Assembly: GCA_944322875.1 (NCBI GenBank)
Contig: CALUQI010000001.1
Coordinates: forward strand, 3,467-67,466
From: Candidatus Gastranaerophilales bacterium
GTDB taxonomy: Bacteria > Cyanobacteriota > Vampirovibrionia > Gastranaerophilales > Gastranaerophilaceae
Reading direction: 5' to 3'
Length of the DNA: 64,000 nt
Positions 60,997 through 64,000 of this stretch are shown here, piece after piece (within the stretch, counting starts at the first letter, position 1; each line of letters begins with the position of its first letter). The translations under genes were made by a program, and so were the position numbers. The notes beneath the pieces were generated by a model that saw only the letters and a list, made by a program, of their open reading frames with translations, was not told the origin of the DNA and searched no databases.

Positions 60997-63900
60997 ATGT
61001 CAGAATACAGTATACAGCAGCAGAAGGTAATAGAGCAATATAGGCAAAGGAACAACTTAGACTTTGTCATATCGGATGATGAAGTTGTATCTATTATGCA
61101 AAAAGAAATGCAAAATACAGGCAAAGTATACCCTGGTTTTGAAAGCCTTGCAGTATTTAAAAGAGGGAATAAAGAAATAAAAACAACAGACCTGTCAAGC
61201 CCTCTGGCACCCAATAACAATCTTTTTGAAACAGTAGGGACAAAGGACTTATCATTAGGTGTTACGTTAGAACGCACTAATCATAATTATGGAACACTTA
61301 CACCATCCCAACCCCAGGCGGATGCAATAAACTTTTTAAAAGAGATAACAACAGAAGCCGATTCAATAGTTAAGGAACGAGATAAAGAATCGGGAGCTTT
61401 ATCCACAGTTGTAAATAGCTGGCAAGAAATATTCAATAAGGAATATGCAAAATCAACCGTAAAAAGAAATATATCAAAAACAAAACAAGATCTGATACTT
61501 CTTGAGAAATCATCAAAAGGAGAACCAATAGCGTATGATTTTTTGGGAGAGCCAATAATTGAAACCTTTGAAGAAACTTTCAAAAATACAAGGGGAGTGG
61601 AATTCGACGAAAAAAATATTCAAGACTGTTCAGAGAAAGCGCAAGCCTATGCGCAAGTAAAAACTGCAGTAGAGATAATAAATAAGACAAAAGGTCGTTT
61701 ATCTTATGTAACAAAAGGTGATGTAACAAGCCAAATGAACCCAGTGGAAGCTTCAAGAGCTATCATTAATGCATTCAGGTTAGTAGGAATAAATTCTAAA
61801 GACGAGATAAACAGAACTCTAAAAGACATAAATGAGAAATACAAAGACCATCCGGATGTAAAAAAATATGGCGGAGATTTTAGAATTGCTAAAAATAGGC
61901 GAGGGAAATATGTAATTTATCGGACATCCAAAAATGGATATCCGGCAGAGGCAACAAACGAAGAGCTAAGACTTATCGCATCGGAATTGGGTATAAGATT
62001 AGATAAATCACTTGCAACAGCATTAGGAGTTGAATATAGCGAAGATGCATCAGCAGCAGAATTATCCAATCTTACAGAGAGCACTTTGAAGAGATACCAA
62101 AAAGATTATGAAAAGAGTTTTGAAAAAGCATACGGAAAAAAAGATTTAAAAATATTATCAGAACGATATGTCGAAAAGCAACAACAAGGTGTTGCCAATA
62201 TAGAAATGAGTTTAAATATAGCCTCAATGGCATTGATGGTAATTCCGGGCGGGGCATTAGCAACAAGCAGTTGGGCATTAAAAGGTGCAGTAGCATTAAA
62301 AGGTACAACAACAGGAGTTAAGGTTGTACGAGATTTGAATCTGATAGATAAAGCCAAAAAAGGAGTACAAATAGCCCAGACATTACAAAAAGTACAACAG
62401 GCAGCATCTCCTGTAATAATGGCGAATATGACATTACGGCCAACAGAATTGTTAGAGCAATTAACATCTGAAAACGGAATGAGTGCAGAAGAATGGGAGA
62501 CTTGGGGCAAAGGAGTATTAGAGAATTCAGTCTATATGGCAGCAGGTATGGGTGCAAGTAAGATTGCGGAACAAGGGGCTGCAATATATAAGACAAAAGC
62601 ATTGGTAAACACCTTAAAACAAACTGGAAAAAGTGCGGATGAAATAGCACTAATGGTAAAAGCAAATCCGGTAAAGTTTCCAAATGATATAGTAAAAAGT
62701 TTCAAAAAAATAGATATTTTAGCCAAGGCATTACAAGTATCAAGTGAAGTAGCTTTGGACATATCAAGTACATACTTATTAAACAAGGTTATGGGAAATG
62801 GCGATGTAACAACTCAGGATTGGATAAATTCAGTAGCCTTTGCAATATCAGGTGGAGTGTTGCAAAAACAGTTTGCTCATTTGAATACAGAATCAAAGGT
62901 AAAATATATTCATGATGCATTCAAAGAATATGGAGTAACAAAAGAGGAAGCACAAAATATTCTAAAGGCGATGGATGATATCTCTGAGGGTAAAATCCGT
63001 GTGAAAAATAAGCCAATGGATAGCAGTCAAAAATACAAAGATACAAATAACCAAGATATTCAAGAAGTAAACGATGGTGAGTTAAAAAAACAACAAACAA
63101 CGTTTTCAGATGCGCCGGAAGCTAAAATAAAACAATTGCCAGAGGCTGAATTCAAAGAATTAACAGATTCAGAATTTTCAAAAATGTATCCTCGGGTTAA
63201 AACGGAACTTGAAAAATATTGTCAAGGATTCGATTTGAATAAACATAATATTTTAATAGCTGATAGATTTTTATCAGATGAGAAGTTATATAATAACGAA
63301 AATTTGGTTGAAAAAATAGGCTATATCCTCGCTAACACTAGAACCGAAGAACAGGTAGCTATAGTGAACAAAGTATTATCAGATGAGAAGTTGTATAATA
63401 ACAAAAATTTGGTTACAAGGATAGGCGGTATTCTCAAATACACCAGAACCGAAGAACACGTTTCTATATTAAATAAAGTATTATCAGATGAGAAGTTGTA
63501 TAATAATGAAAATTTAGTTCAAAATATAGGCGATATTCTTTTAAATACCAAGACAACTGAGACATCAAAAATCAAATTGGCAATAATGAATAAATATGTA
63601 TCAGATGAGAAATTGTATAATAACAAAAATTTAATATTGAATTTAGGTAGTATTCTTTCAAATACCAAGACAATTGAGACATCAAAAATTAAATTGGCAA
63701 TAATGAATAAATATGTATCAGATGAGAAGTTATATAATAACGAAAATTTAGTTAAAAATATAGGCGATATTCTTTCAAATACCAAGACAACTGAGACATC
63801 AAAAATCAAATTGGCAATAATGAATAAATATGTATCAGATGAGAAGTTGTATAATAATGAAAATTTAGTTAATAAAAATATATTCAGTATTCTATATGCC

Positions 63901-64000
63901 ACTAAAACCGAAGAACAGGTTGCTATAGTGAACAAAGTATTATCAGATGAGAAGTTGTATAATAACGAAAATTTAATAGTGAATTTAGGCAATATTCTTT
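60997..64000 (+). CDS. Very large hypothetical protein, 5' part (over 1001 codons, open at the window end) with a C-terminal tandem-repeat array
   Basis: GGAG-N6-ATG at 60987..60999, preceded by an in-frame TGA at 60979. I checked every triplet from 60997 to 64000 and found no stop. Missing from the ORF track only because it has no stop in the window. Confidence 0.75.
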   Translation, partial: MSEYSIQQQKVIEQYRQRNNLDFVISDDEVVSIMQKEMQNTGKVYPGFESLAVFKRGNKEIKTTDLSSPLAPNNNLFETVGTKDLSLGVTLERTNHNYGTLTPSQPQADAINFLKEITTEADSIVKERDKESGALSTVVNSWQEIFNKEYAKSTVKRNISKTKQDLILLEKSSKGEPIAYDFLGEPIIETFEETFKNTRGVEFDEKNIQDCSEKAQAYAQVKTAVEIINKTKGRLSYVTKGDVTSQMNPVEASRAIINAFRLVGINSKDEINRTLKDINEKYKDHPDVKKYGGDFRIAKNRRGKYVIYRTSKNGYPAEATNEELRLIASELGIRLDKSLATALGVEYSEDASAAELSNLTESTLKRYQKDYEKSFEKAYGKKDLKILSERYVEKQQQGVANIEMSLNIASMALMVIPGGALATSSWALKGAVALKGTTTGVKVVRDLNLIDKAKKGVQIAQTLQKVQQAASPVIMANMTLRPTELLEQLTSENGMSAEEWETWGKGVLENSVYMAAGMGASKIAEQGAAIYKTKALVNTLKQTGKSADEIALMVKANPVKFPNDIVKSFKKIDILAKALQVSSEVALDISSTYLLNKVMGNGDVTTQDWINSVAFAISGGVLQKQFAHLNTESKVKYIHDAFKEYGVTKEEAQNILKAMDDISEGKIRVKNKPMDSSQKYKDTNNQDIQEVNDGELKKQQTTFSDAPEAKIKQLPEAEFKELTDSEFSKMYPRVKTELEKYCQGFDLNKHNILIADRFLSDEKLYNNENLVEKIGYILANTRTEEQVAIVNKVLSDEKLYNNKNLVTRIGGILKYTRTEEHVSILNKVLSDEKLYNNENLVQNIGDILLNTKTTETSKIKLAIMNKYVSDEKLYNNKNLILNLGSILSNTKTIETSKIKLAIMNKYVSDEKLYNNENLVKNIGDILSNTKTTETSKIKLAIMNKYVSDEKLYNNENLVNKNIFSILYATKTEEQVAIVNKVLSDEKLYNNENLIVNLGNIL
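63271..64000 (+). repeat. In-frame tandem repeat array, 105/117-nt units (35/39 aa), at least 7 units, truncated by the window edge
   Basis: Units start at 63271, 63376, 63481, 63598, 63715, 63832 and 63940. Each begins [LV]SDEKLYNN[EK]NL. Identity is high at the DNA level. Confidence 0.9.

Follow-up and report, generated by a model that had tools for sequence, protein, structure and literature searches.

What kind of protein is encoded at the 3' edge of the 64,000-nucleotide stretch of Gastranaerophilales DNA analysed here (the window), where an open-ended reading frame runs into a series of tandem repeats? The frame begins with an ATG at position 60997 and continues on the forward strand to the end of the window (60997..64000, +), giving 1001 codons without a stop. 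It is preceded by an in-frame TGA (60979-60981) and by a GGAG ribosome-binding site (60987..60990, +) located six nucleotides 5' of the ATG. All of these features had been reported in a first-pass annotation of the DNA, and each was verified by translation or in the sequence itself. Homologues begin at the same methionine (MSEYS, MADYS or MSKFS). Judged from its sequence, the frame encodes the N-terminal portion of a giant modular protein that is unannotated and belongs to a Gastranaerophilales bacterium. Most complete relatives span 2000-2750 amino acids, and the whole gene probably comprises 1500 to more than 2500 codons. The gene context in the window is housekeeping and chromosomal, and no neighbouring genes are common to the relatives and the window.

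Three additional contigs were found by exact look-up of a neighbouring gene. In these independent assemblies, 515, 768 and 870 codons are shared with the window without a single nucleotide difference, units 1-3 of the repeat array being within the longest shared stretch, and all three break within the array. The contigs L007, L019 and L020 each terminate within the array. Units 1-3 are corroborated by L019, which stops at the junction of units 3 and 4, and units 4-7 are known from the assembly of the window itself. The truncation of the gene in all assemblies seen could be taken as a sign of an assembly artefact or a decaying gene, as could the 96% DNA identity of units 3 and 5, given which the assembly could have the wrong number of copies for units 3-5. 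However, the agreement among three assemblies, the 1001 stop-free codons at 32% G+C, the purifying selection indicated by a pN/pS of 0.25 outside the variable positions of the array, and the same architecture in a 58%-identical relative (L007) make such an origin hardly credible. From these substitution patterns, we regard the frame as a real gene under selection. The remaining 3' part of the gene was not recovered by a genome scan (relatives at most 81% identical), a metagenome scan (only L018, a distant relative with 37% identity), the neighbouring-gene look-up, or a search of the fetched proteins, among which a near-identical C-terminal fragment is absent (best 52% identity).

The first-pass annotation recognised no motif in the N-terminal ~750 residues, apart from a hydrophobic segment. 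This agrees with our database searches, as the whole protein has no family match in Pfam, NCBIfam or PADLOC scans or in a PDB sequence search, and the predicted N-terminal structure has no fold match when compared with the PDB using Foldseek (best E 0.49). However, alignment with relatives identifies residues 1-670 as a lineage-specific N-terminal module (N-module). This module constitutes the conserved region of a large family of modular proteins, in which the array is one of the elements that can be exchanged. At least 68 unnamed clusters of proteins, most of them 2000-2750 amino acids long and with swapped C-terminal parts, share the N-module, which is present at 17 loci in Gastranaerophilales/Melainabacteria genomes.

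The N-module opens with a two-helix element (aa 1-50; 60997..61146, +), with AlphaFold helices at residues 6-19 and 27-41 (pLDDT 73-84). This element is 41% identical to the first 34 residues of P0023 (pairwise E=8e-4), P0103 and P0133 begin in a similar way, and it also opens short repeat proteins that carry none of the rest of the N-module. It is a candidate export or recognition signal. A poorly conserved and probably disordered linker follows (aa 53-97; 61153..61287, +; pLDDT <50, with a consensus that is mostly x), and leads to a confidently folded core of helices and a small sheet (aa ~100-400; 61294..62196, +; pLDDT 75-90) with many invariant residues. The Gly/Ala-rich hydrophobic segment noted previously (aa 404-438; 62206..62310, +) is indeed present, with a best 19-residue Kyte-Doolittle mean of 1.58 at aa 404, and it includes two residues, A412 and G419, that do not vary within the family. 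AlphaFold confidence is low across residues 403-486, and the segment is a borderline candidate for a transmembrane or membrane-inserting element. The C-terminal helical half of the module (62311..63006, +) is kept in all relatives and ends in ...MDDISEGKIRVK (aa ~670). Divergence within the family sets in directly after this motif, where a variable polar linker begins (aa 671-712; 63007..63132, +) that is unconserved in relatives (pLDDT <50 for residues 665-725).

The C-termini found behind the N-module include ADP-ribosyltransferase (PF03496), AvrB (PF05394), RelA_SpoT (PF04607), HD (PF01966) and A_deaminase (PF00962) domains as well as HExxH motifs. N-modules that are 75-82% identical are yet joined to different C-termini (AvrB-like, the HD module, HExxH and others), and some proteins, such as those at L011 and L013, carry multiple payloads. 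A conserved N-terminus followed by alternative, unrelated C-terminal domains, by which polymorphic toxins are recognised, is thus found here. As in polymorphic toxins (Rhs/CDI/LXG) and MARTX proteins, enzymatic domains are swapped at the C-terminus, the same payload occurs with different front ends, and several payloads per protein are possible. The domains themselves (ADP-ribosyltransferase, RelA/SpoT-like, deaminase, metallopeptidase-like and AvrB-like) are also typical of toxins and effectors.

In other respects the proteins differ from these systems. Unlike that of polymorphic toxins, the N-module gave no match to a known trafficking domain or signal (Sec, LXG, PAAR, RHS, TPS or T1SS) in Pfam, NCBIfam, PADLOC or fold searches, and a signal peptide-like start is absent from the proteins. 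Beside the genes examined we recognised no secretion apparatus and no consistent immunity gene; at the two loci where the downstream gene was inspected, there is a 113-aa ORF (L009) or no gene on the same strand (L003). As neither Pfam nor the fold comparison gives a match for the N-module, export is a suggestion drawn from its architecture. We rejected an RTX protein or type I secretion substrate, as the upstream OEP and HlyD genes belong with an MFS pump and RTX motifs are absent. A phage or defence-system origin was likewise rejected, given the housekeeping chromosomal context and the lack of a PADLOC match. The literature searched on Gastranaerophilales/Melainabacteria toxins, polymorphic toxins and secretion systems contains nothing on this protein family, and no source searched has a name for these proteins.

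The repeat array begins at residue 759, after a leader or "cap" (…EFKELTDSEFSKMYPRVKTELEKY…NKHNILIADRF; 63133..63270, +) that precedes the array in the repeat family and is helical in the model. The same motif, ELSDEEF…K…, stands before the first unit in L007, the L005 ORF, L018a/b, P0021, P0028, P0085, P0097-P0099 and P0110. The seven units, all on the forward strand, start exactly where they had first been placed and have the sequences first given. Units 1 (63271..63375) and 2 (63376..63480) are of a short, 35-aa type. Units 3 (63481..63597), 4 (63598..63714) and 5 (63715..63831) are of a long, 39-aa type, distinguished in unit 3 by an extra helical turn in the third helix (helix C). Unit 6 (63832..63939) is a short-type unit of 36 aa with a one-residue insertion, and unit 7 (63940..64000) is cut at the window edge. 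All seven match a profile built from the array (i-E 1e-7 to 4e-14), and Tandem Repeats Finder reports an array at 63271-63975 with periods of 105 and 117. However, the initial description of the units as near-identical was overstated. They share 64-96% DNA identity, and synonymous differences are common (pS ~0.45 over all pairs). Even so, with a core identity of 0.76 among its units, compared to 0.21-0.66 within other arrays and 0.34 between proteins, the window array is the most homogeneous array seen. It may have been recently expanded or homogenised, which would explain why short-read assemblies break in it.

Variation among the units is restricted by position, as had been proposed. Amino-acid entropy exceeds 2.2 bits solely at alignment columns 15, 19 and 22 and is moderate at columns 16 and 23. 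Columns 15, 19 and 22 account for 13 of the 32 minimum changes over 35 columns (P=0.003 under an equal-rate null). The pN/pS is 0.9-1.25 at the variable positions versus 0.25 at conserved positions, and the higher values are compatible with plain relaxed constraint.

An AlphaFold model of the array is all-helical (pLDDT 75, pTM 0.65), which supports an alpha-helical repeat of the solenoid type. However, there are three helices per unit rather than the two first suggested. Positions 15, 19 and 22 lie within a 60-degree arc of the second helix (helix B), opposite its hydrophobic face, so that the variable residues are neither buried nor scattered. We infer from the model that these three positions make up an exposed ridge on helix B, flanked by 16 and 23. 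The array resembles ARM and HEAT proteins (importin-alpha, Hsm3, PP2A-A, alphaRep) in its stacked helical units of ~35-42 aa, and ARM units in having one short helix and two longer ones. In synthetic alphaRep libraries an exposed helix face varies on a scaffold that is conserved, and the array shows a similar arrangement. The best Foldseek matches are HEAT/ARM proteins (probability 0.99-1.0). However, the top 50 PDB matches are generic HEAT, ARM, PUF and alphaRep solenoids with E>=0.017, hence all above 0.01, and TM scores of 0.3-0.57. In Pfam, HEAT_GCN1_C scores 17.3 bits on the array versus a cut-off of 27, Arm_3 is also sub-threshold, and no family reaches its threshold. Specific to the array family are the [LV]SDEKLYNN signature and the way in which units of 35 and 39 aa alternate. 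The predicted structure is consistent with the ARM/HEAT structural class, with a generic resemblance that singles out no named family.

The first-pass annotation had compared the array with the modular readers TALE, PPR and PUF. The array does share with TALE and BurrH proteins its tandem units (33-35 aa in those proteins), its position-restricted variation, a helix C that starts with T-(P/E)-E-Q, and the disruption of short-read assemblies. However, TAL_effector (PF03377) matches neither the whole protein at E<=1 nor the array at E<=10, and no TALE or BurrH chain is among the top 50 Foldseek PDB matches. In addition, the variable di-residue of TALE repeats occupies the inter-helix loop at positions 12-13, which in the array would be an invariant V-L, whereas the variable residues of the array lie inside a helix. 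Unlike TALE repeats, the units differ at many synonymous and some nonsynonymous sites. For these reasons, we rejected kinship with TALE proteins. An echo of the TALE TPEQVVAI in the array's TEEQVAIV had been pointed out, with the caution that it might be coincidence; this stretch corresponds to the T-P-E-Q consensus of the repeat family at the start of helix C, and, since such a start is a common helix N-capping box, we take the likeness to be coincidental.

A related proposal is that, like TALE, PUF or PPR proteins, the array acts as a programmable reader in which each unit recognises one letter of DNA, RNA or another polymer, with a code at positions 15/16/19 or 15/19/22. The three-helix units of 35-39 aa are reminiscent of the 36-aa, three-helix units of PUF proteins, as are variable residues at i, i+1 and i+4 (and, in the array, i+7) on one face of one helix, and PUF structures occur among the Foldseek matches (TM 0.46-0.51, E 0.08-0.25). 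However, this resemblance is generic, as ARM/HEAT proteins score equally well. The PUF (PF00806), PPR, Sel1 and TPR Pfam profiles do not match the array at E<=10, and the array-family profile finds one irrelevant match among all PDB sequences (E 0.17). PUF proteins have eight units, a concave, basic face that binds RNA and a small code, whereas the bacterial arrays have 3-17 units, are fused to enzyme payloads, carry no net charge in the window example (32 K+R versus 31 D+E), and show more than eight residue types at each variable position with no small recurring code. We found no evidence that the array reads DNA or RNA in the TALE manner, and consider a one-unit-one-letter reader very unlikely.

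Profile comparisons place the array in an uncurated, lineage-specific "SDEKLYNN" repeat family, in which it usually lies between a leader and an enzyme domain. An exhaustive profile search yielded 170 representative proteins at E<=1e-3 (clusters at 50% identity), so far found only with Gastranaerophilales-type proteins. The window array shows the defining features of the family, which are profile-matching units and an ELSDxEF cap. Among 395 units from ~150 proteins, columns 15, 19 and 22 are again the least constrained, and the exposed polar residues S2, D3, E4, N9, T24 and E28 are strongly conserved. As a comparison of relatives suggested by the first annotation reveals, the number of units varies from 3 to 17 between the N-terminal leader and the C-terminal payload of complete proteins. 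At L018, two tandem genes each consist of a leader, a cap, 8-10 units and an HD module, and over 683 aa this HD module shares 48% identity with the C-terminal end of an N-module giant. The module (~650 aa) forms the C-terminus in 33 of the 67 long repeat proteins and in 13 of the 68 N-module proteins. A second shared payload lies behind arrays in P0094, P0124, P0085 and others, and an array is also present in a GNAT-containing protein.

The same fusion of N-module, cap and array as in the window is carried by L007. A profile search found the repeat in none of the 68 complete N-module proteins, and nothing significant in the spacer regions of other N-module giants. The fusion is thus seen in truncated genes only, and in the diverged complete relatives P0094, P0118 and P0133, which combine a diverged N-module with units and a payload. 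The missing C-terminus of the window protein is predicted to be a payload module, for which the HD module would be the most likely single candidate. Some arrays stand alone. P0021-P0029 are array proteins with no payload; among them, P0023 is a complete relative that ends after the array, and the genes for P0023 and P0027 lie in housekeeping neighbourhoods apart from N-module giants. Another stand-alone cap and array is encoded at L005 (ORF 17274-18149), 200 nucleotides downstream of the gene for an N-module giant with the HD module at its C-terminus. The start codon of this ORF is TTG, and the ORF may be the remnant of a gene.

The arrangement at L005, and the fusion of arrays to the HD module in half of the long repeat proteins, raise the question of whether the array is a regulatory or immunity-like partner that binds, masks or chaperones the HD payload in cis or in trans. 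However, arrays also precede a different payload and occur in the GNAT-containing protein, the stand-alone genes in housekeeping surroundings are not beside HD giants, and the L005 ORF is itself a possible remnant. We therefore regard a dedicated HD partner as improbable.

Our preferred reading, which we hold to be reasonably probable, is that the array forms a solenoid that serves as an adaptor or binds a target, within a modular effector that is probably exported. The array would fold into a rigid ARM/HEAT-like alpha-solenoid, with a scaffold built by the conserved residues L1, S2, D3, E4, L6, N9, I20, L21, T24 and E28, leaving the helix B ridge (15, 19 and 22, flanked by 16 and 23) free to vary. 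As an adaptor or target-binding domain, it would position or direct the downstream enzymatic payload. The carrier would probably be an exported effector or toxin, for which the N-module may supply export or membrane insertion.

A plainer possibility, which we consider doubtful but deserving of weight, is that the array is a passive spacer: a stalk, either rigid or extensible, that holds the N-module apart from a payload and was lengthened recently through unequal recombination, with variable positions that are unconstrained surface residues and have no binding role. This would fit the broad alphabets and highest entropy of the variable columns across the family, their pN/pS of ~1, the wide range of unit numbers, and the long non-homologous helical regions that other N-module giants have between N-module and payload. 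However, the conservation of exposed polar residues over ~150 proteins goes beyond the needs of a spacer, and the payload-free proteins suggest that the array has a function of its own. Moreover, the variable sites of short-type units have a pN of 0.66, double the pS of 0.32, although the counts are tiny.

A bolder reading, which we think unlikely, is that the array is a naturally diversifying recognition solenoid. With its three-residue patch on helix B (15/19/22), each unit would specify a single element within an extended ligand, for instance a glycan, peptide or nucleic acid, and unit shuffling and diversifying selection would retarget exported Gastranaerophilales enzymes. If true, this would amount to a bacterial equivalent of the modular recognition typical of TALE and PUF proteins, here joined to toxin payloads.

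The Gastranaerophilales, widespread gut bacteria related to cyanobacteria, are uncultured, and to our knowledge their interactions with hosts and neighbours are essentially unknown. The locus described here reveals a large unnamed family of modular proteins, 1000-2900 residues in length, that combine a private N-module, a private helical repeat and swapped payloads. The most homogeneous arrays break short-read assemblies, and such genes are therefore systematically missing from protein catalogues. If the proteins are exported, they would represent the first candidate effector arsenal for this lineage, and the repeat would offer a new, naturally occurring scaffold for binding.

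The reading frame that opens at ATG 60997 continues for 1001 codons to the end of the window with no stop, with a GGAG 6 nt upstream of the ATG and an in-frame TGA at 60979. By exact look-up of the 416-aa product of a neighbouring gene, we located contigs from three other assemblies, and these show 0 nucleotide differences from the ORF over 515, 768, and 870 codons. One of the identical contigs stops in unit 1 of the tandem array and another exactly at the junction between units 3 and 4, so the array is real through unit 3. The copy number of units 3–5 is its least certain part, since unit 3 shares 96% identity with unit 5. 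The remainder of the gene beyond the window was not recovered from a genome scan, a metagenome scan, or fetched proteins.

Short-read assemblies break in the array. A relative with 58% identity and the same architecture (locus L007) stops one unit into its array, at locus end 12079, and L019 and L020, which carry the window gene itself, have their locus start within the array. All short-read contigs with the window gene or its L007 relative thus end within the array, one of them exactly at a unit boundary. Because contigs end in arrays, genes with homogeneous arrays are likely under-represented among the complete proteins in catalogues.

Tandem Repeats Finder places the array at 63271–63975, with periods of 105 and 117. 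The seven unit starts and the unit peptides of the first-pass annotation are exact, as is its claim that variation is restricted by position; its description of the units as near-identical was overstated, since their DNA identity is 64–96% and they often differ at synonymous sites (pS about 0.45). In a codon-level alignment of the units, amino acid entropy exceeds 2.2 bits at columns 15, 19, and 22 alone, and columns 16 and 23 are moderately variable. The minimum number of changes over 35 columns is 32, and the three most variable columns account for 13 of these (equal-rate null, P=0.003). Outside the variable positions pN/pS is 0.25, indicating purifying selection on the scaffold, and at those positions it is 0.9–1.25, so their rate of change is close to neutral or a little higher. 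The window gene is thus a real gene under selection. That the ORF or its array is an artefact or a pseudogene, a concern with units as similar as 3 and 5, is extremely improbable.

The array is charge-neutral and the most homogeneous we have seen, with a core identity of 0.76 versus 0.21–0.66 in other arrays and 0.34 between proteins. A helical wheel of helix B puts positions 15, 19, and 22 at 40, 80, and 20 degrees and the hydrophobic residues L12, V13, I17, I20, and L21 at 180–300 degrees, so the variable residues form a solvent-exposed ridge of this helix. Family-wide, the same three columns again have the highest entropy (3.3–3.9 bits), with many residue types at each, and S2, D3, E4, L6, N9, I20, and L21 are conserved. 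Such a pattern is that of a putative solenoid scaffold whose surface either is free or bears specificity, and not that of a small recognition code.

An AlphaFold run on the window array together with nine relatives (pLDDT 75, pTM 0.65) predicts three helices per unit, a short EKLY helix, helix B (ENLVxxIGxILx), and helix C, rather than the two proposed from the sequence. Foldseek searches of the PDB with this model return generic solenoids alone (deoxyhypusine hydroxylase, Hsm3, importins, alphaRep proteins, and Pumilio domains), all with E≥0.017 and TM 0.3–0.57. The first-pass annotation had suggested a modular reader of the TALE, PPR, or PUF kind, and the profile searches do not bear out this kinship. 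At E≤10 in Pfam the array matches only HEAT_GCN1_C and Arm_3, both sub-threshold, and has no match to TAL_effector, PUF, PPR, Sel1, or TPR; the array family profile finds nothing among all PDB sequences, and TALE structures are absent from the top 50 Foldseek matches. A TALE/PUF-like programmable reader, despite the Pumilio domains among the structural matches, is therefore highly unlikely. The array is probably an ARM/HEAT-like adaptor or target-binding domain; that it is a passive spacer, leaving the variable surface free, seems to us doubtful. Alpha-solenoid repeats are already well known as a kind, whereas the SDEKLYNN family is uncurated and lineage-specific.

A search with the array by itself found nine stand-alone repeat proteins, none with a Pfam domain, and searching 1.84 billion representatives exhaustively with a profile yielded 170 repeat proteins at E≤1e-3. 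With a unit profile, 395 units were recovered from about 150 proteins. The motif that marks the family is [LV]-S-D-E-K-L-Y-N-N, after which comes an amphipathic helix, and a cap usually lies in front of the array, ELSDEEF..., which in the window protein reads FKELTDSEF.... The 35/39-residue dimorphism of the window units is family-wide; protein P0081, for example, mixes both lengths among its 17 units, and the long type has one extra helical turn in helix C. SDEKLYNN is thus a lineage-specific three-helix repeat family located between leaders and payloads. An N-terminus of the form M-[KRNQEDL]-[IVFL] (typically MKI...) occurs in 81 of 153 repeat-family proteins (P0021–P0029 and P0081–P0227), and many have an [IL]-[ST]-F-[KR]-G motif about 40–60 residues in, directly ahead of the cap. 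These two features may be a shared leader distinct from the N-module.

The N-module, residues 1–670 of the window protein, has no match in Pfam, NCBIfam, PADLOC, or PDB sequences. The earlier view that the N-terminus carries no recognised motif holds in this respect, yet the region is the conserved part of a protein family, with 20 relatives found by single sequence and 68 clusters by profile, all strong matches. These proteins are mostly 2000–2750 aa. Conservation ends at ...MDDISEGKIRVK (aa ~670), beyond which they are fully divergent. Their C-terminal parts include ADP-ribosyltransferase (PF03496), AvrB-like (PF05394), RelA/SpoT-like (PF04607), HD (PF01966), and adenosine deaminase (PF00962) domains, HExxH metallopeptidase-like motifs, and GNAT-like regions, with several types together in some proteins. 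The N-module is thus a lineage-specific family with swapped payloads.

The AlphaFold model of the N-module (pLDDT 63; no PDB match by Foldseek) predicts a two-helix N-terminal element (aa 1–50), a disordered linker (aa 53–97), a confident domain (aa 100–400), and a helical C-terminal half after a Gly/Ala-rich region. The hydrophobic Gly/Ala-rich segment noted at first pass is present and conserved at aa 404–438 (Kyte-Doolittle 1.58), in a low-confidence region. The first ~35 residues recur at the starts of the short repeat proteins P0023 and P0025, and of P0103 and P0133, in all of which the rest of the N-module is missing or diverged. Window 60997–61098 (the first ~34 residues, MSEYSIQQQKVIEQYRQRNNLDFVISDDEVVSIM) is 41% identical to residues 1–36 of P0023/P0025 (pairwise E 8e-4). 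This recurring element would fit a recognition or export signal.

Payloads are common to N-module and repeat proteins. Locus L018 carries two tandem paralogous plus-strand genes of 1168 and 1288 aa (1965–5471 and 5474–9340), 2 nt apart, each encoding a leader, cap, 8–10 units, linker, HD domain, and a C-terminal domain ending IPFV(V/F)FGD. Their ~650-aa HD module aligns over 683 aa, at 48% identity, with the C-terminus of a long N-module protein in L006. Among long repeat proteins it forms the C-terminal end in 33 of 67, and among N-module proteins in 13 of 68. A second common payload lies after the array in P0094, P0124, P0085, P0097, and other proteins, and is also found at the C-terminal end of the N-module protein P0055. 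This second module is ~630 aa long (P0094 residues ~930–1564; also the L010 and L015 C-termini), contains a motif rich in Cys (...GSCCTAVGTGCNQF... / ...GHYCQCCISLDG...), and matches nothing in Pfam. P0081 consists of a GNAT domain, its units, and a C-terminus of no assigned type; P0118 and P0133 have an N-module, units, and an HD region. P0094, which is complete at 1564 aa, has a diverged N-module, a cap, directly 7–8 units, and then the payload, which makes it the best counterpart of the window protein at full length. The SDEKLYNN repeat is absent from all 68 complete close N-module proteins, which fits an assembly bias against homogeneous arrays.

A stand-alone 291-aa ORF with a TTG start (L005, 17274–18149, plus strand) encodes an ELSDAEF cap and ~5 diverged SDEKLYNN units. 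Upstream of it, at a distance of 200 nt, lies the gene for a 2361-aa N-module protein that ends in the HD module; the ORF may encode a partner or an immunity-like protein, or may be what is left of a gene. This arrangement prompts a rival reading, unlikely overall, in which the array would regulate the HD payload in cis or trans; other stand-alone repeat genes lie in housekeeping contexts, which weakens that reading. An N-module protein in L009 has an ADP-ribosyltransferase C-terminus, and 42 nt past its stop begins a small plus-strand ORF of 113 aa (7627–7968, MQIKQ... at its start) that might encode an immunity protein; nothing comparable was seen downstream of the AvrB-like member of L003.

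Relatives of the ORF were found only in Candidatus Gastranaerophilales/Melainabacteria metagenome-assembled genomes and unclassified gut bins, and they share no neighbouring genes with the window, which has one copy each of the N-module and the repeat module. The window (G+C 29–38%) includes housekeeping genes such as those for Mfd, DnaG, CysS, and EPSP synthase. About 5.5 kb upstream of the ORF, at 51030–55501, lie genes for an MFS pump, an HlyD-type adaptor, a MarR regulator, and an outer-membrane efflux protein (OEP), which look like EmrAB-TolC-type drug efflux and not like type I protein secretion. A 700-aa minus-strand ORF (21915–24017) without a Pfam family likewise includes a hydrophobic stretch rich in Gly and Ala (...GVATLSALGASAFPTIVTAFAEAGV...GGLLGGGIAGVLSGLLFG...), together with an acidic linker that is rich in Pro and contains Cys. 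This ORF sits where the window is richest in G+C (0.38 versus about 0.32).

Both the polymorphic architecture and the kinds of payload suggest that proteins of the N-module/repeat family are exported effectors or toxins. The N-module would supply export or membrane insertion, and the missing C-terminus of the window protein would be a payload. We found no description of these proteins in the literature searched, and no source names any of them. Modular polymorphic effectors are a well-known kind; the N-module and the repeat family, singly and in combination, are uncurated and specific to this lineage. Their main value lies in an unexplored effector-like repertoire in an uncultured gut lineage, and the array may also offer a natural binding scaffold.
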